Shown: positions 11,671 to 49,801 of the stretch, in pieces | Layout: every line of letters starts with the position of its first letter | How positions within the stretch are numbered: the first letter of the stretch is position 1 | From: Dictyostelium discoideum | Lineage: Eukaryota | Assembly: GCA_000004695.1 (NCBI GenBank) | Contig: CM000151.3 | Span: 7,424,001 to 7,488,000 of the forward strand | Reading direction: 5' to 3' | Length of the DNA stretch: 64,000 bases | Translations under genes and position numbers: made by a program | The notes under the pieces: generated by a model | The model's database searches: none | The model's input: the letters and a program-made list of their open reading frames with translations, nothing else | What the model was told of the DNA's origin: nothing

Positions 11671-11743
11671 GTTCGGATGGTGTAGTCGGTTATCACGAAT
11701 CCTTAACACGGATTAGGTCGTGGGTTCGATTCCCGCTCTGAAT
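11671..11743 (+). tRNA. tRNA-Val(AAC)
   Basis: Acceptor GTTCGGA/TCTGAAT; D arm GTGT-AGTCGGTTA-TCAC; anticodon arm AATCC-TTAACAC-GGATT (anticodon AAC); T arm GTGGG-TTCGATT-CCCGC; discriminator A; T-run downstream. Confidence 0.8.
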
Positions 11744-11749
11744 ACTCTT

Positions 11750-20413: not shown

Positions 20414-22433
20414 TATATTATTTATATTATTATTATTACAATTATGTTGATTATATAATTTATTTTCTTGTTGTTTTTTAAATTTAAATTTTAACATTTT
20501 AACACAAATTGAAAAATGTTTAATTGAACGACAACGAAATTCAGTTAAACGAATTTTATTTTGATCATTTGGATAACATTTTGAGAATTCTCTTTCGATT
20601 GATTCATTTGTAAGAATTTGAATTGTATATTGTTTAATGAATTGAAAAGTTTCATCACGTTCTAAAAATATTGAAATGAATAAATCATTGATTGGTGAAC
20701 TTTTATTTTGTTTAATGATTTCATCGAATACGGTCAATAGATAATGAATGATATGAATGTCTTTAACTCTATCCGATGTGATTGGACCACGAAATATACT
20801 ATGTTTTACTTTTAACAATGATTCAATACAAACGTCAACCACTTGAGATGAAAGAATTCTTGAGGGACAATTCTCCATATACTCTGAGAGTATGCAAAGT
20901 TGATATTCCATATCATCAAAGGTAAAAGTTTCCAACATATTTGAGATACTAGAATTGATTCTCCATAAGAGTAAATCCAATTTCTTTCTAAATGATGCTT
21001 TTCTCTCTAACCCCATACCTTTGGTAACGTCCCTCCAACGATTACGATGAATATACTCTACATAATCTGACCAATGACTTGCCAATTTATAAAACAAGGT
21101 TAAATGATCCTTATCAGATGGAATGATACCTTTGTGAAGTAATATCGATTCAGAGTATAATATGTTTATTGGGTTATTACCATACTGTAACAACATTAAA
21201 TTATTTGATGTCGATGAGATCAATGTCTTTAGAATATTACATCTAACTTTGTATAGATTTAACTCTGAAAATGAAGATTGTTGTTGATTTACCATTGATA
21301 ATGCTGCTGTGTTTTTACTTGAAATCGGTGGTATATCATATCTTCTTGAAGGTATTGAACGTTTTGATTGTTTGTGTGATTCAATTGCTTGTTTATATGA
21401 TATCAATGCTGTAAGATCTGCTGTCATATAGGTTTCACCCAATTTAATTGCTAAATCACTCAATTCTTTAGATGCACTAGTTTCAATTTTCAATTCACCT
21501 TGATGTGATCTTGTTGAATTGGATGCATCATCTCTTCTTCTACTTGATCTTGTATTTCTTGTACTATTTTCAACACGTACTGGTAAATTTAAACGTGGTA
21601 CAATTGATTTCGATATACCACCACCACCACTACCACCTCCACCACCACCACCAATTCCACCCATTGAAAGCATTGGAACTTTACTAATTGATCCACCACT
21701 AGTTGCACTATTTGGTGTATTATTTGGATGGATTTGATTTACATTATTATTATTTATACTATTTGATAATGGTAATGGTGGTACTCTTGATGTTATTGAT
21801 GGTGTTGATATCGTTGGTGTTGATATTGTTGTTGTTGTTGTTGTTGTTGCTGCCGCTGTTGAATTATTTGAATTTAAAGATGCTACAGTTGAAGAAATTA
21901 ATGGACTATCCATTGGGCTACTAGTATTACTATCATTATTATTATTATTATTATTGCCTCTATTTCTATTAAATAATGGTGGAGTTTGATATAAACTTGG
22001 ATTATGATAATGTAAACTTTGAATTTGACCAATTGAGGTTGGTTTTGGATTGTTTGATGGTGGATTGGTAGATGTTGAAATTGGTGATGTTACAGATGAT
22101 GGTAAATTTGGTGTTGGTGCTGGTGTTATATTTGTACTATTTACATTGTTATTATTATTTGTTATTGTAGATATTGGTGATAAAATTGAGGTTGGTGTTG
22201 TAACATCCCCACTCTTTGTATTTGATTGTTGTATTATTGTATTATTATTATTATTACTAGTAGTTGATTGTTGATGTTGTTGAAAAAGTGGTGGTCTTGG
22301 TATTGGTACACTTGTTAATAAATTCTCAAAAGTGAAACCTTGTGGTGGAGGTGGTGGTACACCATCATCCCAACAAGGTATCTGTATGGATTGAAATTCA
22401 TGTATATTAAGTTTTTGTTGCTGTTGTTGCTGC

Positions 22434-22520
<87 letters not shown>

Positions 22521-23353
22521 GAATTTTGTTTTTGTTGTTGTTTTCCTAAAGTTTTTGTTGGTGAAGAATTTGAAGTAGTTGAAGATGTAGTTGATGCTGT
22601 AGATGCTGTTGTTGCAGATGATGACGATGATGATGACGATGATTGTAAAGGACTTGATGTTGATGTTGGTATAGATGATGATGAATTTGATAATTGCTGT
22701 TGTGATTGTTGCACAACTGGTGTTGAATTTATATGTATAGAAGGATCAACTTTAAATTTTATATTTGATAAAGCTAATGAACATTTATAATAAATTTCTA
22801 ATAATTTTGGTATGCATAAATCTTCAATAAAAATCTTTAATTTTTTTATTAATACAAAATTACTTTTTTTTTTTTTTTTGTTGTTTTTTTATTTTAATTA
22901 AAATACATACAGATCTTAAAGGATAAAAAGAAATAATTTTTGTTAAGACATCAGAAATACCAATACATTCAATGTCATTATAAAGATGAGAAATGATTTG
23001 TTTACAAAATAAACGTGATGCATCATGTGAATTATCGATGAGTTGTTGGCAAATCTCTATGATTACATCATTTTTTATAGAGTTTTTACCACAATAACAT
23101 AGACATTGTATTAATATTGTTATACCACCTTGAGTTATACAATGATTCTTTTCTGTACTATCCAATAATTTTATCTTTTCTTTTAAAACAATTAATGATT
23201 CTAATAGTTGATTACTTCTTTCATTTGATTCATGATTATGTGTTGTTGATGTTGTTGTTGTTGTTGTGGTGGTGGTGGTGGTTGTTGTAGTTAATGATGA
23301 TGTTGATACATTATTCTTTGATTTAATTAAAATATTTAAAGATGAGAATAACT

Positions 23354-25283: not shown

Positions 25284-27310
25284 ATGAGAGTATTACTTGT
25301 ATTAGTTGCATGTTTAACATATTTTAGTGGTGGTGCATTAGCACAATGTAAGTTCCTTGAATTAAATAAAAAATAAAAAAACAAATAAAAAATTAAAGGA
25401 TTGAAAAAAAAAAAAAAACCAATTAGATTAAGTTTTTGGAAAAAAAAGTTAAAAAAAAAAAAAAATGAATCAAATAATAAAAACAATAATAATAAACATA
25501 ATTAGAATAAAAATATAGAAAAAAATCTAACTTAAATATATTTTTTTTTTTTTTTTTTTTTTCTAATATAGCATGTTCTTCATATTCTGGTGACAATTGT
25601 CCAAGTACTTGTTTCCAAGGATCATATGATATCCCATGTGGTGCACAAGTTAAATATTGTACAGAAATGAAAGATAATTGTGGAGAAGGTGGTGATGTTA
25701 AATGTTGGAAAGATGGTAGTAATCTCCCAGTCCAAACATGGAGTTCATGTGTTCCAAGTGAATTATTTGGTCCAAATGGTAAATTTAAACCAAGTGAAAT
25801 ACCAAATTCTTCAAATTGTCCAACAAATTGTGAAAATGGTGTAGAATGGGTTAATTTATGTGGTTTATCTTGCGATGCTAAAACAGCATGTTGCCCAGAT
25901 GTTTGTCAATGTAAAGGTGGTCAAACAAGTGGTGGTTCAACAACTGGTTCACAAACAAGTGGTGGTTCAACAAGTGGTGGTTCAACAACTGGTTCACAAA
26001 CAAGTGGTGGTTCAACAACTGGTTCACAAACTAGTGGTTCACAAACAAGTGGTGGATCATGTTCAAATACTCAATGTCCAAATGGATTCTATTGCCAAGT
26101 TCAAGGAAATAATGCAGTATGTGTTCCACAACAATCATCAACCAGTGGTGGTCATCAAAATGATCCATGTGATACCGTTCAATGTCCATATGGTTACAGT
26201 TGTGAATCTAGAGATGGCTTTGAAGCTAAATGTACTAGAGATGAAGATGAACCAACTCATAGACCAACTCATAGACCAAAACCACCACACGACAGTGATA
26301 AATACCTCTGTGATAATGTCCACTGCCCAAGAGGATACAAATGTAATGCTAAAAATGGTGTTGCCAAATGTATTGCCGGTTATGAAATTCCAAGAGTATG
26401 TCGTAACATCCAATGTCCAACCGGTTACAGATGTGAAGATCACAACCGTAATCCAATCTGTGTTTTAGAAGAAAGAGAGAATCCAGATAATTGTTTAACT
26501 TGTAATGATGTTAACTGTGAAGCCTCTGGTTTAGTTTGTGTTATGACTCGTGCTAGATGTAAGGTCGGTGCTGCTAAATGTTGTGATGTTCAACCAACTT
26601 GTATCAAACCATCAACCATCGCAGGCTCAACCATCGCTTCAATTGCTTCTACTATTGCTTCAACTGGTTCAACTGGTGCTACTTCACCATGTTCCGTTGC
26701 TCAATGTCCAACTGGTTATGTTTGTGTCGCTCAAAATAATGTAGCTGTTTGTTTGCCAAGACCTACCACTACCACCGGTAGCACATCTGACTCGTCTGCC
26801 CTTGGTTCAACCTCTGAAAGCTCTGCCTCTGGTTCCTCTGCTGTTTCAAGCTCTGCCTCTGGTTCTTCTGCTGCTTCATCTTCACCATCATCATCTGCTG
26901 CAAGCTCTTCTCCATCTTCATCTGCTGCAAGCTCTTCTCCATCTTCATCTGCTGCAAGCTCTTCCCCATCTTCATCTGCATCATCAAGCTCTTCCCCATC
27001 TTCATCTGCATCATCAAGCTCTGCCCCATCTTCATCTGCATCATCAAGCTCTGCTCCATCTTCATCTGCATCATCTTCATCTGCATCATCTTCATCTGCA
27101 TCATCTGCAGCAACTACAGCTGCAACTACAATTGCAACTACAGCTGCAACTACAACTGCAACTACAACCGCAACCACAGCTACAACCACAGCCACAACCA
27201 CAGCTACAACCACAGCTGCAACCATAGCTACAACCACAGCTGCAACTACAACTGCAACTACAACCGCAACCACAGCTACAACCACAGCTACAACCACAGC
27301 TACCTCTTAA
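25284..27310 (+). CDS. Secreted Cys-rich protein with repeated C-P-x-G-[YF]-x-C modules and a C-terminal Ser/Ala- then Thr/Ala-repeat (mucin-like) tail. Spore-coat (SP96/Cot-like) or extracellular-matrix type. join(25284..25347, 25572..27310).
   Basis: ATG at 25284 gives the signal peptide MRVLLVLVACLTYFSGGALAQ. GTAAGT donor at 25348 and ..atatag acceptor at 25571 are in frame with ORF 25667..27310. Five repeats of QCPxGYxCxxxxxxxxC. Tail (SSSASSSSAPSSSA)n then (ATTA/ATTT)n. Confidence 0.7.
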
Positions 27311-32869: not shown

Positions 32870-33249
32870 TTTATTTGTTTATATGTTGTTTAATAATTCC
32901 AATAATAAAATAACAATAAAATAACAATAAAATAACAATAAAATAATAATAAAAATAATAAAATTATAAAAATGTAAACCCCAATAACAAATGAGTAGCA
33001 AAAGTAAAAGAGAGAAAAAGAGATATCTTGGTGTTTTTTTTTTTTTTAAAATAAAAAAAAAATAATAGGTTTCAACAAAACAAATATACACCACACCACC
33101 ACAAAACCTCTCACTAACATATTCAAATTATAATTTACCTCACAAAAAATAATAATAATAATAAAAAAAAAAAAAAATAAAATAAAATAAAATAAAATAA
33201 TAATAATAAAAAAAAATAATAATAGTAATAACAATACAAAAACAACAAT

Positions 33250-33287
<38 letters not shown>

Positions 33288-33882
33288 AACAAATAAACAG
33301 TGTAGTGAAACTTTAGTTTTTTTTTTATTTTTTTAATTATATTATTATTATTATTTTTTCTTTATTTAAATTATTCTTATTTTTTATTTATTTATTTATT
33401 TATTTTAAAAAAACAAACAAGATTACTTTAATCAATATCAATTATTTTTTTCATTATTTTAATTATTTTTCTCATTTTTATCATTTTTTAAGCATGGTAA
33501 AAAAACAAAAAAAAAAAATAAAAAATAAAAAAAAAATAAAAAATTAAAAAAAAAAAATTTTAAAAATTTTAAAATTTTTTTTTTTTGAGGTGTAACCACT
33601 CTCACAAAAAAAAAAAAACCTCACATAAAAAAGCAATTTAGTTGTGTAAATAAATAGATATTAATTATAATTTTTAACATATAATATTATTGTACATAGG
33701 AAATTTATAAATATATATAATAATAAAATAATAATTATTTTTTAGGTATATAAATAATAAACGATAAAATATTTTATATTATAAACCAATACATAATAAT
33801 CATACATATAATTATATATATATATTTAAACCATATAATAGAATAAAATATAAAACAACAAAAACAACAAAAACAACAGTAG

Positions 33883-33919
<37 letters not shown>

Positions 33920-33974
33920 ACAGAAAAAAAAAAAAAAAAAGTTAAATAAAATATATATTTTTATATATTTATAT

Positions 33975-34665
33975 ATGATGGATCCATCCACTATATCACC
34001 ACCATTGTCACCATCTCCATGTTTTCTATTAGGTTCACCAGCACCACCGTTTTCAACAACTATGCCCCAACCACCAACATTATTTTTATCGAACCCAAAT
34101 AATAGTAGTAGTAATAGTACATCATCATCGTCATCATCTTGTCCAACAAATAATAATCATTTAAACCGTGGTCAAAATAACCAATCGAATCATCATTATC
34201 ATCACACAACAGAGTCAAATAATCAACTTTCTTTATCTTTATCCTCTTCGACTATACAAACACAAGAACTACCAAATCAAAATTTAGTAATACCACTTAA
34301 TTCTTCTTTATCAACAGTACCAGTACCACCACATAATAATAATAATAACAATAATAATAATATTAGCAATAATATTAATAACAATAACAATAACAATAAT
34401 AATAATAATAATAATAATAACAATAATAATAATAATAATAATAGTAGCATAAACAATAATATTAATAACAATAATGATAATAATAATAATAATAATAGCT
34501 TAAATAATGACGATACTGATACTAATAAAAGCAATAATGAAAACATTAAAGTCCATCATGACACCATTAATAGTAGTGGTTTAGTGCTCGATACCAATAT
34601 TATCAATAGTGAAAAAATGGATATAGAGATTAAAATTAATAGTAACGATATAAACGGAAATAATG

Positions 34666-34700
<35 letters not shown>

Positions 34701-34704
34701 GATG

Positions 34705-34735
<31 letters not shown>

Positions 34736-36563
34736 TAATAATAATAGTAATAGTAATAATAATAATAACAATAATAATGATAGTAATAATAAAAATGATA
34801 CATCAAATGATGATATTAATACCATTGAGTCCGATATTAATAGTGGTAGTAATAACAGTAGTGAAAACAATAATAGTAAAAATAGTAATAGTTTAAATTT
34901 TCCACAATCATTTTTAAGTGATCCAAATTCACCTTTATTCGAAAATGAAAAACAATCTTCCTCTATCTCACAACCATTAGAAAAAAGTAATATTAATAAT
35001 AACAACAATAATGATAATAATAACAATGACAATAGTGATGATAGAAATAATATTAATTGTAATAACAATATTTTAGAAAATGAAAATAAAAATGAAAATG
35101 AAAATGAAAATAAAAATAATAATTCAACTACCACTAATAGTAACACTACAATTTTTGATCAAACAAATATTAATAGTATTATTCCAAACACAACAACTAC
35201 AACAACTACAACAACCACTACCTCGACGAACTCATCAACTACAACACCAACAGCAACAACAACAACAACCACCACAACAACAAATTTACAATCAAATTAT
35301 AATTTTAATTTTAATCCATTAAAGAGAAGTTTAGATATTGAAGCACAATTAGATAGAGAACATATGGAATTAAAGAGAAGACAAAAAGCTCAATTAAAAA
35401 CACACACATTAGAATATCAATTAAGACAAAGAGAAATGTCAAGACCAAAACCTGGTACAGCATCTCTTCAATCGAGAAAGTTTTATTTAAATATCGCACC
35501 TGACAAGACTGTGTATAACATTGACGTACCAAATTGTATCATTAAAAAGTTCACATCCGATGGTGAAAAGTTGTTATGTTTTTCAAGAGATTTCAAAGAG
35601 ATTCAATTGTATCGTTTCATTGGTTCAAACTTTAACATACCAAAAGGTGCTACAAAAGAATCTAAAGAGAAAATTGAAAAAAACTTTAATACTTACTTTC
35701 GTTTACTCTATCAATCTCATGTTCCAAATTTTAATGAATATTTATGTCGTGATTTCTCTTTAACAACTTTATGTGGTAATTATGTAAGTGTTTTTTTTTT
35801 TTTTTTTTTTTTATATTTTAAAATTAAATTTATTTTATCATTTCATTAACAATTATATAAAAATATATAATAGTTTATATTAGCATCAAGTGGTCAATCA
35901 TCAACATTAGGCAATCAAGCACAAAATAATCAAATAAATAATATATTAGAACATCAAGATATTAATAGAAATAGAAATGTCGTACAATCATTGAATTTAC
36001 CAAATTGCGAAGATATCACATTTTATTTAGTGAGTATTAATGATGGTGTAGTTAGAGATAAGATCACATTTAAAAGGGATGTGATTCATTTGGCTCATCA
36101 TTCTGGCGTATATTTGTATAAGGATTTATTCATTGTATTGTCACTACAATATCAAGCAATTCATATATTCCAAATAAAGGATACCAACTTTGTAAATTTA
36201 AAAACCATTGGTCCACATTGTAACGAGGATGATCAAGCAGAGATTGATGACCTTGCAAAGAAAGAAATACCTCATTTAAAAGCTGCTCACGAGAAAAAGC
36301 TTTTACATGATAGTTATTCAACAATCACCCCAATGAATCCTTTATTTGCTCAATTCTATATAAATAAAACTTTGAATGCTCAATCGAATAATGGAAAAGA
36401 TTTAAATCCAAAAATTTCAAATTCACTTAATAAAACCATAATAAATAATAATATTAATATTAATAATAATAATAATAATAACAATAATAATATAAATAAT
36501 AGTAATAACAATAATATACACCACAATCATCATCATCACCACCATCATCACCATCACCACAAC

Positions 36564-36642
<79 letters not shown>

Positions 36643-36786
36643 CACCACAACATGGTTTAAATAATATTTTAACAGCATCATTAAATTTATCATCTTCGAA
36701 TGTATTGAATTCATCTACTGCCACTGCACGTAATATACCTTTATCAACTACCACAACAAATATCCCTCCAACCGATCACCCAATTC

Positions 36787-36845
<59 letters not shown>

Positions 36846-37045
36846 CCACAACCACAACAATTACAATTACCACAACATCAGCATCAACAACAACAACAAC
36901 AACCACATCAACAACCACATCAACATCAACAACAACAACATCAACAACCACATCAACAACCACATCATCAACAACAACACCACCAAAACAATCATCAACA
37001 ACATCAACAACATCAACAACACCAACATCATCAACAACAACAACT

Positions 37046-37081
<36 letters not shown>

Positions 37082-37110
37082 CCACCAACATCAACAACAT
37101 CATCATCATC

Positions 37111-37189
<79 letters not shown>

Positions 37190-37191
37190 CC

Positions 37192-37222
<31 letters not shown>

Positions 37223-38453
37223 CCAACACCAACAACAACACCAACACCAACAACACCAACACCAACAACACCAACACCAACACCAACAACACCAACACCA
37301 ACACCAACACCAACACCAACACCAACACCAACACCAACACCAACACCAACACCAACACCAACACCAACACCAACACCAACACCAACATCAACATCAACAA
37401 CATCAACAACATCAACAACATCAACAACAACATCACCATCAACAAAATCAACACCACCATCAACAAAATCAACATCAACAAAATACGATGAATTATCAAC
37501 AAATGTTTGGACAAACATTTTCAGAAATTAATAATTCAAATGAGAATAGATATATTAGTGGTATTAAACAAAGATTCCTTAGTTATTTATTTAAGAAAGC
37601 ATTAACAAGTGAAAATAAGAAAAAGGCATTGAGTATGTATTATTCTTTGTACCCACAATATTGTAGCTTGGTAATGTGGAAGATGCAATCATTGGATGCA
37701 TCACATTTGTTAATTAAATTGGGTTCAATCGATGGTCTATTGGGTAGAGTTACAGACTATTGTAATCAGATTTGCTTTTTCGTTGTTTACAATGTCTACA
37801 CCACCGAAGTGATTGGAGTCTATGAAAATTCAAATAAAGAATTTGCCAAAACCTTTGAACAATTTTGTGAACATTTCCGCGCTTGTAGTTGTCCCTCTGG
37901 TTTAATTAAATTTAGAAGCACCTGTTCCAATAATAGTTTTGTACGTGAACATTTGATCAAACAGAAATTGGCCGTTGTAAATGCACGTTATGGTGGTGAA
38001 ACTCAAGCAGTCAAAAGAATCCTATCAGCCTTACCTTTCTCTCCACAATCTTGGAATGAATCACCATACTTTGATAAATATTTGTTTAGTTACGATGAAA
38101 AGATCATCTCCTCCACCGAAAGACCTAAACCATTGGTTGACTATCCAATCAAATTTTATTCTCGTGTCAGTGGTGAAGTTAAATTCAAACTTAACACTGG
38201 TGGTGCTCAAGAGAAAATTGAAAGACAAAACAAAAAATACGCAACCTATATCTTTCATCCTTATTATCCTTTCATCATATCACTTTTACATAGTCCAAGT
38301 ACAGGTTCAGCTGCTGTCAATTTTCATTTCATAAATGATGACGATGAAAATAATGATGGTTATAATACTGATCAAGATGATGAACATGATATTATAATAT
38401 TGGATAATAATAACAATAATAACAACAACAATAATAATAATACAGTATCATAA
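33975..38453 (+). CDS. det1: DET1 (de-etiolated-1) homologue with very large low-complexity insertions. join(33975..~35783, ~35873..38453), about 1440 aa.
   Basis: Blocks that align to conserved DET1 segments: ..DVPNCIIKKFTSDGEKLLCFSRDFKEIQLYRFIG..; ..GVYLYKDLFIVLSLQYQAIHIFQIKDTNFVNLKTIGPHCNEDD..; ..MWKMQSLDASHLLIKLGS..; ..ICFFVVYNVYTTEVIGVYEN..FCEHFR..; ..NARYGGETQAVKRILSALPFSPQSWNESPYFD..LFSYDEKIISSTERPKP..YPIKFYSRVSGEVKFKLNTG..; ..FHPYYPFIISLL..AVNFHF. The intron (GTAAGT at about 35784, ..aatag acceptor at about 35872) joins the two listed ORFs in frame. Long N-runs and a ~300-aa Q/H tract separate the conserved blocks. Confidence 0.8.
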
Positions 38454-38953
38454 ACTTTTAAAAACTCAGAATTATCTATTTTTTTTTTTTTTTTTTTCAT
38501 ATGAAAAAAATTTAAAACAAAAAAAAAAAAATAAAATTATTTATTATGCACTATAGGCAAATGCCTATATTTTTATGTATGTTTTGTAAATTAAAAAAAC
38601 TTTTCATTTTTTTTTGATCACCATGACTCATTATTATCATTTTATAGAATATTCTTTTTACTATTTTTTTTTTATTCCAATCAGAATTTCTTTTTTTATA
38701 ATTATTTTATTTTTAATTTTTTTTTTTTTTTTTTATAAACGTCCAAAATGTCCCATCTTGTGAATCTCGTCTAAATTTTATAATTAAAGTATGCAAAATG
38801 ATTTTTTTTTTTTTTTTTTTAATTTTTTATTTTAATTGTGTCGTTTAATTTTTTAATTTTTTTATTTATTTTATTTTTTATTTTATTTTATTTTTTTTTT
38901 TTTTTTTTTCTTAAACGCAATAGTAATAATAAAAAATAAATAAAAAAAAAAAA

Positions 38954-40117
38954 ATGATATCAGATATTTCTAAAAATAAAAAATGGACAGTAATTGGTGG
39001 TGGTGCTTGTGGTATTGCAGTGATTGGTAAATTATTAGATAATGGTATAAATGTTAATGATTTATTATGGATTGATCCAGAGTTTAATGTTGGTGATATT
39101 GGTAAAAAATGGCGTACAGTTTCAAGTAATACAACAGTAGCATTATTTACAAAGTTTTTAAATGCTTGTAAATCATTTGATTATGAAAATTGTCAAATCG
39201 ATTTTAATTTAAATCATTTAATACCAGCTGATACTTGCAAATTATCAGAGATAGCTGATCCATTACAATGGGTAACTAATACATTAATTCAAGATAAAAA
39301 AGTACCAATTATTAAAGGTTTAGTAAATCAAGTTTCTAAAATAAATGAAAATAATAATAATTGGTCAGTTTCAATTAAATCATCAAATAATGATGATGAT
39401 GATGATGATAATAAAATAATTAATATTATTAGTGAAAATGTAGTATTAACAATTGGTGCTGAACCATTAACAATTTTAAATGAAAGTAAACAACAACAAC
39501 AACAACAACAACAAAAAGAATTAATTACAGTTGAACAAGTTGTAAATCCAGAAGAATTAAAAAAAGTTTGTAAAAAGGATGATGTTGTTGCAGTTTATGG
39601 TAGTTCTCATACTGCAATCATTGCATTGTATAATATTGTTGATATTGGGTCAAAGATTATCAATTTCTATAGATCACCATTAAAGTATGCAGAATATTAT
39701 GATGATTGGATTTTGTATGATAATACTGGTTTAAAAGGTTATTCTGCTGAATGGGCAAAAGAACATTTGGAAAAGAATCCTACAAATTTAATTGAAAGAA
39801 TTCAAGTTGATAATAAAGAATTGCTTGAAAATAAATTATCAAATTGTACAAAAGTAGTCTATGCAATTGGTTTTGAAAGAAGAGGTTCAGTTAATATTAA
39901 ATTAAATGAAAATCAAGATTGGATAAACTCTTCAAATTTAAAATACAATGAATCAAATGGTATAATATCAAATCATGGTTTATTTGGTATTGGTATTGCT
40001 TTTCCTCAATTTAAACCTGATCGTGTTGGTAATTTAGAATATAATGTTGGTTTATGGAAATTTATGGTTTATTTAGATCAAGTTTTACCACTTTGGTTAA
40101 ATAAAAATAAAAATTAA
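38954..40117 (+). CDS. FAD/NAD(P)-binding oxidoreductase (two Rossmann dinucleotide-binding motifs)
   Basis: N-terminal VIGGGACGIAVIGKLLDNG (GxGxxG) and a second VAVYGSSHTAIIALYNIVDIG motif. Single ORF of 387 aa. Confidence 0.55.
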   Translation: MISDISKNKKWTVIGGGACGIAVIGKLLDNGINVNDLLWIDPEFNVGDIGKKWRTVSSNTTVALFTKFLNACKSFDYENCQIDFNLNHLIPADTCKLSEIADPLQWVTNTLIQDKKVPIIKGLVNQVSKINENNNNWSVSIKSSNNDDDDDDNKIINIISENVVLTIGAEPLTILNESKQQQQQQQQKELITVEQVVNPEELKKVCKKDDVVAVYGSSHTAIIALYNIVDIGSKIINFYRSPLKYAEYYDDWILYDNTGLKGYSAEWAKEHLEKNPTNLIERIQVDNKELLENKLSNCTKVVYAIGFERRGSVNIKLNENQDWINSSNLKYNESNGIISNHGLFGIGIAFPQFKPDRVGNLEYNVGLWKFMVYLDQVLPLWLNKNKN

Positions 40118-49727: not shown

Positions 49728-49801
49728 GGGACTATAGTTTAGTTGGATATAACGACCGGCTACGAACCGGTAGGTCTCAGGTTCGACCCCTGATGGTCTC
49801 G
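49728..49801 (+). tRNA. tRNA-Arg(ACG)
   Basis: Acceptor GGGACTA/TGGTCTC (two G-U pairs); D arm; anticodon arm ACCGG-CTACGAA-CCGGT (anticodon ACG); T arm TCAGG-TTCGACC-CCTGA; discriminator G; followed by T7 (Pol III terminator); ex-B-like GGTTCAATTCC at 49832-49842. Confidence 0.8.

Follow-up and report, generated by a model that had tools for sequence, protein, structure and literature searches.

DET1 of plants and animals is an adaptor that docks on the DDB1-CUL4 ubiquitin ligase and links COP1 and an E2 enzyme (UBE2E/COP10 type) to substrates that are transcription factors. A Dictyostelium homologue of chromatin-binding DET1 with a role in cell-type specification has reportedly been described by Dubin, Kasten and Nellen in 2011 (Eukaryot Cell 10:352-362), as the title of their paper has it. 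We analysed a stretch of 64,000 nucleotides of Dictyostelium discoideum DNA, called the window in the following, in which a two-exon gene on the forward strand (33975-38453) encodes a 1462-residue DET1 protein laden with low-complexity inserts. Since the window comes from D. discoideum, for which a DET1 homologue has already been published, this locus appears to be the known det1 gene. The gene very probably encodes an orthologue of the DET1 adaptor that carries translated, slippage-derived and most likely neutral low-complexity inserts at places where its fold tolerates them.

DET1 proteins dock on the BPC of DDB1 through an H-box helix-loop-helix at their N-terminus. In human DET1, residues 262-329 form a helical insertion, the "cup", which holds the E2 enzyme Ube2e2, and residues 263-291 contact the C-terminal side of this E2 (PMC11864197). 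Residues 257-328 are flexible and unresolved without E2, and the polar contacts to the E2 are made by D289, H297, R317 and D324 (PMC12808801). Further along the chain, L389 anchors DDA1 and S458 is a regulatory phospho-site (PMC11864197).

We found the D. discoideum protein to be collinear with human DET1. With the Pfam Det1 profile (PF09737; cut-off 25 bits), the protein scored 359.3 bits (E 3.9e-107) in two stretches, the best of which aligns residues 1128-1423 with positions 121-411 of the 412 in the profile. A phmmer comparison with the human DET1 chains 9dhd_B, 9bjz_B and 9ltj_A of the PDB, which belong to the CRL4-DET1-COP1 structures (E about 1e-86), also gave two collinear blocks, with residues 471-727 corresponding to native human residues 10-268, and residues 1157-1422 to human 285-545 of 550; the second of these blocks is 41% identical to human. 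The first-pass annotation of this DNA had called the gene a DET1 homologue in which all conserved blocks are present, and the Pfam search and the human alignment bear out both statements. The pair of open reading frames at 33975-38453 was the only Det1-family match tested in the window. Five other dictyostelids, Physarum and early-diverging fungi also have an orthologue, and further ones came from transcripts of other Amoebozoa; the best match in this homologue set, in which D. discoideum's own DET1 was not among the matches, is 87% identical.

The predicted structure agrees with this assignment. An AlphaFold2 model of residues 441-1462, built from a 24-sequence orthologue alignment, shows core strands with a predicted local distance difference test (pLDDT) score of 84-96, and a mean pLDDT of 57 that is owing to the inserts and to the size of the alignment. 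When this model was compared with the PDB by Foldseek, ranks 1-13 were all human DET1, with E values down to 7e-31 and target-normalised template modelling scores of 0.72-0.75 for nine near-complete DET1 chains and of 0.43-0.51 for four fragmentary ones. Model and Foldseek matches thus point to the DET1 fold, in which a seven-bladed propeller is modified and carries the cup as a helical insertion. The assignment to DET1 is therefore supported by the sequence family, by the full-length collinear human alignment and by the predicted fold.

The conserved parts can be followed along the gene. The first DET1 block is split by the intron into residues 471-603 (35385-35783), which comprise the H-box region and the first propeller blades, and residues 604-727 (35874-36245), which end at a conserved CNEDD anchor (36219-36233); both halves were delimited by phmmer and the AlphaFold2 model. 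The alignment of this block with native human DET1 starts at human residue 10. In the H-box region, which aligns with the human N-terminus, helices are predicted at residues 453-476 and 479-488 with a pLDDT of only 58-79, and the strands after them reach 84-96. The second block (residues 1157-1422; 37533-38330), defined by Pfam and phmmer, includes the helix-loop-helix of the cup (residues 1164-1202, corresponding to human 292-329; 37554-37670), whose two helices are predicted at residues 1167-1180 and 1185-1200 with a pLDDT of about 90. Collinearity with human DET1 would extend over the DDB1-binding helices near the N-terminus, the modified beta-propeller and the E2-binding helix-loop-helix of the cup. 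Judging by its human and plant homologues together with the published Dictyostelium work, the protein would act as an adaptor of the CUL4-DDB1 ligase.

At the level of single residues, the resemblance is less uniform. Human W304 and F320, which lie in the helix-loop-helix of the cup, correspond to aromatic residues in D. discoideum, F1176 and Y1193, and human S458 corresponds to S1333, a position that is serine in all 24 aligned sequences. The four human E2 contacts D289, H297, R317 and D324, in contrast, are replaced by N1161, Q1169, S1190 and P1197 (codons 37524-37526, 37548-37550, 37611-37613 and 37632-37634), and human L389 is replaced by T1263 (37830-37832), a threonine found in every amoebozoan DET1 aligned. 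That these DDA1 and E2 contact residues are not conserved hints at partner interfaces that have co-evolved or that may differ from the human ones.

The most obvious difference from human DET1, which has 550 residues, is the size of the protein. About 900 extra residues, all of low complexity, are placed at four sites, namely an N-terminal extension of 455 residues, a loop at residues 615-640, the connector within the cup and the C-terminal tail, and asparagine, glutamine and histidine make up 19%, 14% and 7% of the spliced product, respectively. The loop is a small 34-residue insert of low confidence in the AlphaFold2 model (within 35874-36245), and the tail is acidic and includes a run of 12 asparagines (38331-38450, with the run at 38406-38441). 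The D. discoideum protein shares this organization with its dictyostelid orthologues, which comprise P0001, P0002 of Tieghemostelium lacteum, P0003, P0004 of Acytostelium subglobosum and P0005 of Heterostelium album: the conserved blocks are 78-88% identical, the N-terminal motifs are the same, and the low-complexity inserts occupy the same positions.

The N-terminal extension (residues 1-455; 33975-35339) was delimited by Tandem Repeats Finder (TRF), a listing of residue runs and the alignment. It is rich in asparagine, aspartate, serine and threonine, it includes a run of 22 asparagines (34377-34442), an ATAATA-type array (34333-34800) and threonine runs (35190-35282), and it is specific to dictyostelids, being missing from the Physarum, fungal and human DET1 proteins aligned. 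Two short, Ser/Pro-rich motifs within it are common to dictyostelid DET1 and are likewise missing from those three. Motif A, ISPPLSPSPCFLLGSPAPPF..P.PPTLFL (residues 7-38; 33993-34088), has hardly changed in P0001, P0002 and P0004, and P0003 retains part of it; motif B, LSLSLSSS.IQTQELP....PLNSSLS.VP.PP (residues 84-119; 34224-34331), recurs in P0001 and, at a shifted position, in P0002 and P0003. The two elements might serve as phospho-sites, as a degron or for the binding of a partner.

The largest internal insert is a linker of 442 residues (residues 724-1165; 36234-37559) between two anchors that are kept across Amoebozoa and human, CNEDD (residues 719-723; human C260-D264) and GIKQRFL (residues 1166-1172; human S294-L300). 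As the anchors bracket human residues 265-293, the linker lies inside the first segment of the cup and ends eight residues before the helix-loop-helix. The corresponding segment has 29 residues in human DET1, 70-128 in other Amoebozoa and 113-162 in four other dictyostelids, where it is rich in threonine, asparagine and serine, unlike in D. discoideum. It was previously suggested that the DET1 blocks are separated by hundreds of residues of poly-asparagine; most of the poly-asparagine, however, does not lie between the blocks but in the N-terminal extension, ahead of the H-box and of both blocks. Within the linker, a run of 11 histidines (36528-36560) is followed by 27 asparagines that include a perfect (AAT)25 at 36564-36638 (the whole spanning 36528-36641). 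The model predicts disorder for the greater part of the linker, with a pLDDT below 50 at residues 764-978, 1077-1110 and 1120-1164. In the Gln/His-rich part, it also draws a single helix of about 100 residues (977-1079; 36903-37211) with a pLDDT of 70-89, directly after which the perfect (HQ)n run is of low confidence. This helix probably reflects the usual behaviour of AlphaFold2 on polyglutamine, and we do not take it as evidence of structure.

The downstream part of the linker is a Gln/His tract of 232 residues (36786-37481), shorter than the roughly 300 residues of the first description, although the region itself is as described. TRF reports it as an array of period 6 with 116 copies and 85% matches, and its score of 823 ranks first among the tandem arrays of the window, the next scoring 272. 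The tract, which is far beyond chance, is composed of 155 CAA, 34 CAC, 28 CAT, 7 CCA and 8 other codons. Perfect CAA runs are located at 36786-36845 (20 units), 37110-37187 (26 units) and 37191-37220 (10 units), with a further (CAA)11, and they confirm the (CAA)n flanks noted earlier. At 37221-37385, the codon table reveals a pure CAC/CAA block of 25 CAC and 30 CAA codons. The longest perfect hexamer run within this block is (CAACAC)16 at 37287-37382, or CAA(CACCAA)16 when extended to 37385, and at the protein level the region yields (HQ)18 (residues 1076-1111; 37290-37397). The earlier count of about 25 perfect CAACAC copies is thus right for the number of units, with five extra CAA codons interspersed among them, but not for the perfect run, which has 16.

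The codon usage of this block differs from that of its surroundings. All 25 of its histidine codons are CAC, whereas the remainder of the Gln/His tract has 28 CAT and 9 CAC, and 16 other long open reading frames of the window together have 129 CAT and 31 CAC (81% and 19%). An all-CAC block in such a CAT-preferring background argues for amplification of a CAACAC unit rather than for selection of a peptide with free choice of codons. Neither a Gln/His tract nor an (HQ)n run was present in the alignment of P0001-P0005 and the more distant orthologues, a comparison outside which D. discoideum's nearest Dictyostelium species lie. Being confined to this lineage, the Gln/His tract would have arisen after the split from the other sequenced dictyostelids. 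Perfect head-to-tail copies, codon homogeneity and lineage-specific presence, which characterize microsatellites formed by slippage, were all found, and judged from the sequence, the tract is a lineage-specific slippage product. The description of the repeat as recent is upheld by the homogeneity of its codons and by the lack of such a tract in four other dictyostelid orthologues.

We compared the region with one other D. discoideum assembly, GCA_054883475.1, which is 99.5% identical to the window over 21 kb (28911-50158). Each of the 27 differences is either a single substitution within non-coding, AT-rich DNA or a change in the length of an A/T homopolymer (up to 23 nucleotides), and changes of the latter kind may reflect true variation or errors of sequencing. 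None of the 27 falls within the DET1 coding region or within any triplet or hexamer coding repeat, so that the 4476-bp coding region, every repeat included, is identical in this one comparison assembly. Among wild clones of D. discoideum, coding-repeat loci are highly polymorphic, as much so as non-coding ones, and high diversity is predicted for repeats of this length (PMC3460934), while reports on the mutation rate of D. discoideum repeats conflict and lean towards a low rate per generation (PMC9234386). From this literature on coding repeats in D. discoideum, it is plausible that the CAACAC tract is prone to expansion.

The gene model on which the protein rests has a single intron. Two long forward-strand open reading frames, 33975-35849 and 35991-38453, are joined through a 90-nucleotide intron at 35784-35873 (GTAAGT...ATAG; 7.8% GC), which was assigned by frame, splice consensus and composition. 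Exon 1 (33975-35783) encodes residues 1-603, and exon 2 (35874-38453) encodes residues 604-1462 and ends with a TAA stop at 38451-38453; both were defined by open reading frame and frame, have lengths divisible by three and are in frame with each other. The peptide across the junction, ...LCGNY|FILASSGQ..., belongs to a motif CG(N/K/R)Y|FILASSG that is kept among orthologues, and GNY|FILASSG is unbroken in P0002, P0003, P0004, P0005 and the Physarum protein P0011. A gene call on GCA_054883475.1, from DNA identical to 33978-38453 of the window, gives a 1461-residue product that starts at the second in-frame ATG, located at 33978. One short intron between the two reading frames, as first proposed, is thus supported by frame, consensus, composition, the junction in orthologues and a second gene call.

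Two of the orthologue models deviate from this picture. P0001 (958 residues), the closest orthologue found, has neither GNYFIL at the D. discoideum junction nor a stretch near residues 690-705, which suggests mis-predicted intron borders in its annotation. P0003 (898 residues) carries homeobox domains (PF00046, PF05920) ahead of its DET1 part and is without the GIKQRF helix; this homeobox-DET1 arrangement is probably a merged or mis-spliced prediction and not a real fusion.

The AAT, CAA and CAACAC tracts most likely originated by replication slippage or unequal exchange, a process that loads coding regions with microsatellites throughout the D. discoideum genome. The CAC/CAA block would be the youngest layer, formed when a single CAACAC unit was amplified at the DNA level after the lineage split. 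The tracts probably persist because they are situated in surface connectors, and the CAC/CAA block would loop out of the cup, most likely neutral or nearly so and dispensable for DET1 function. Their position, their lack of conservation and their codon homogeneity lead us to regard the tracts as tolerated products of slippage. Several points weigh against this interpretation. Translation of the tracts is suggested by the gene model, by composition and by general knowledge of D. discoideum; the linker, presumed to be neutral, adjoins what would be a functional interface; its long predicted helix could represent either structure or the usual polyglutamine behaviour; and the substitutions at D289, H297, R317, D324 and L389 (to N, Q, S, P and T) allow for partner interfaces that differ from the human ones.

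The second and third of these points could instead be read as signs that the linker is a functional module of the E2-binding cup, for example a prion-like or condensate-forming domain, a nuclear-body targeting signal made of histidine runs, or an (HQ)n element that senses pH or metals. Such a module could tune how E2 and COP1 are recruited, and variants of different length could influence plasticity in development. All amoebozoan DET1 proteins examined have an enlarged linker at this site (70-162 residues, compared to 29 in human), so that some linker is maintained there; it abuts the helix-loop-helix that binds E2 in human DET1, the long helix of its Gln-rich part is predicted with confidence, and regulatory proteins of D. 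discoideum are reportedly enriched in Asn/Gln tracts (PMC9234386). Sequence and composition of the linker, however, vary among dictyostelids and are Gln/His-rich only here, the homogeneous codons indicate amplification of DNA rather than selection of a peptide, and D. discoideum coding repeats are as variable as non-coding ones, which speaks against constraint (PMC9234386, PMC3460934). We consequently consider a functional linker unlikely. More specifically, the linker might serve as a tether that forms condensates, or that responds to pH or metals, and that controls the recruitment of E2 and COP1 to CRL4-DET1, with slippage-driven changes in length feeding developmental plasticity. We think this distinctly improbable; if it were true, slippage would provide, through the length of the linker, inherited differences in developmental plasticity between clones of D. 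discoideum.

Two further explanations question the tracts themselves, either in the protein or in the assembly. The low-complexity tracts might be spliced out as extra introns, leaving a compact DET1 as the real product, and the poly-asparagine tracts are indeed as AT-rich as introns (12.7% GC at 36421-36640). The Gln/His tract, in contrast, has a single G and no GT dinucleotide, and thus no canonical donor; with 38.6% it has the highest GC content of the gene, compared to 7.8% in the true intron and 11-13% in the flanks. In addition, the frame is open across all tracts for more than 4.4 kb, orthologue gene models have low-complexity sequence at the same sites, and the independent gene call arrives at the same 1461-residue product. 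Introns within the Gln/His tract were rejected for want of a GT, while for the AT-only poly-asparagine tracts splicing is conceivable from the sequence alone; taken as a whole, a compact spliced product is very improbable. Finally, long perfect repeats are hard to assemble and the two assemblies differ at many homopolymers, as might be expected if the perfect repeat were a collapsed or mis-extended microsatellite. Yet both share an identical 4476-bp coding region with all of its repeats, and their 27 differences lie outside the gene. We therefore rejected an assembly artefact, which is hardly conceivable given this agreement on the repeats. A DET1 adaptor with translated, tolerated slippage inserts remains the reading that we favour.

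The window as a whole has a GC content of 25%. The gene is flanked by stretches rich in A/T homopolymers at 33837-33940 (with 58 A) and 38802-38909 (about 108 nucleotides, T-rich), each of which is of unequal length between both assemblies. Downstream, the next open reading frame (38954-40117) exactly matches XP_642930.1, the hypothetical protein DDB_G0276839 of Dictyostelium discoideum AX4. Minus-strand open reading frames beneath the tracts, which would encode poly-leucine, poly-valine and poly-isoleucine, were rejected as genes, being mirror images of the repeats, and an Rfam search of 33000-39500 gave no match. Elsewhere in the window, we noted a tRNA-Val(AAC) at 11671-11745 and a tRNA-Arg(ACG) at 49728-49801, both on the forward strand, as well as further strong tandem arrays of coding type, namely a (GTT)44 at 22411-22542 and arrays with periods of 45, 54, 30 and 12 at 25916-27301, whose units are rich in serine, threonine, glycine and alanine.

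In D. discoideum, 11% of the genome consists of simple sequence repeats, and repeats with units of three, six or nine nucleotides are very frequent in the coding regions (PMC9234386); 1,423 coding sequences contain a perfect triplet repeat with 26 units or more (Scala 2012, PMC3460934). With its (CAA)26, (AAT)25 and (CAA)20, det1 is a member of this class of about 1,400 genes. It resembles the coding microsatellites described for the species (Eichinger 2005; Scala 2012; PMC9234386) in its AAT and CAA arrays of at least 20 units, in the encoded polyasparagine and polyglutamine, and in being a regulatory protein. Unlike in typical triplet microsatellites, its putatively youngest array is a CAACAC hexamer that encodes a dipeptide repeat, although hexa- and nona-nucleotide units still belong to the class (PMC9234386). 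The repeat-bearing det1 gene is real and was, in essence, rightly interpreted at first sight, but it is already known and is ordinary for its genome. The evolutionary interest initially attached to its presence and to its extreme tolerance of insertions was overstated, given that the homologue was published in 2011 and that such tracts occur genome-wide in D. discoideum.

As a discovery, the locus thus carries little weight, since it is an annotated and experimentally studied gene of a model organism in which repeat-laden proteins are the rule. Our analysis is modestly useful in that, with the human DET1 structures of 2025-2026 as reference, it maps the largest internal insert to the inside of the cup that binds E2, between the first segment and the helix-loop-helix, at a site that is expanded in all Amoebozoa sampled. 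D. discoideum det1 is therefore a natural test of how much disorder is tolerated at the interface of a cullin-ligase adaptor, and its repeats, if they vary among wild clones, could serve as a convenient multi-allelic marker.

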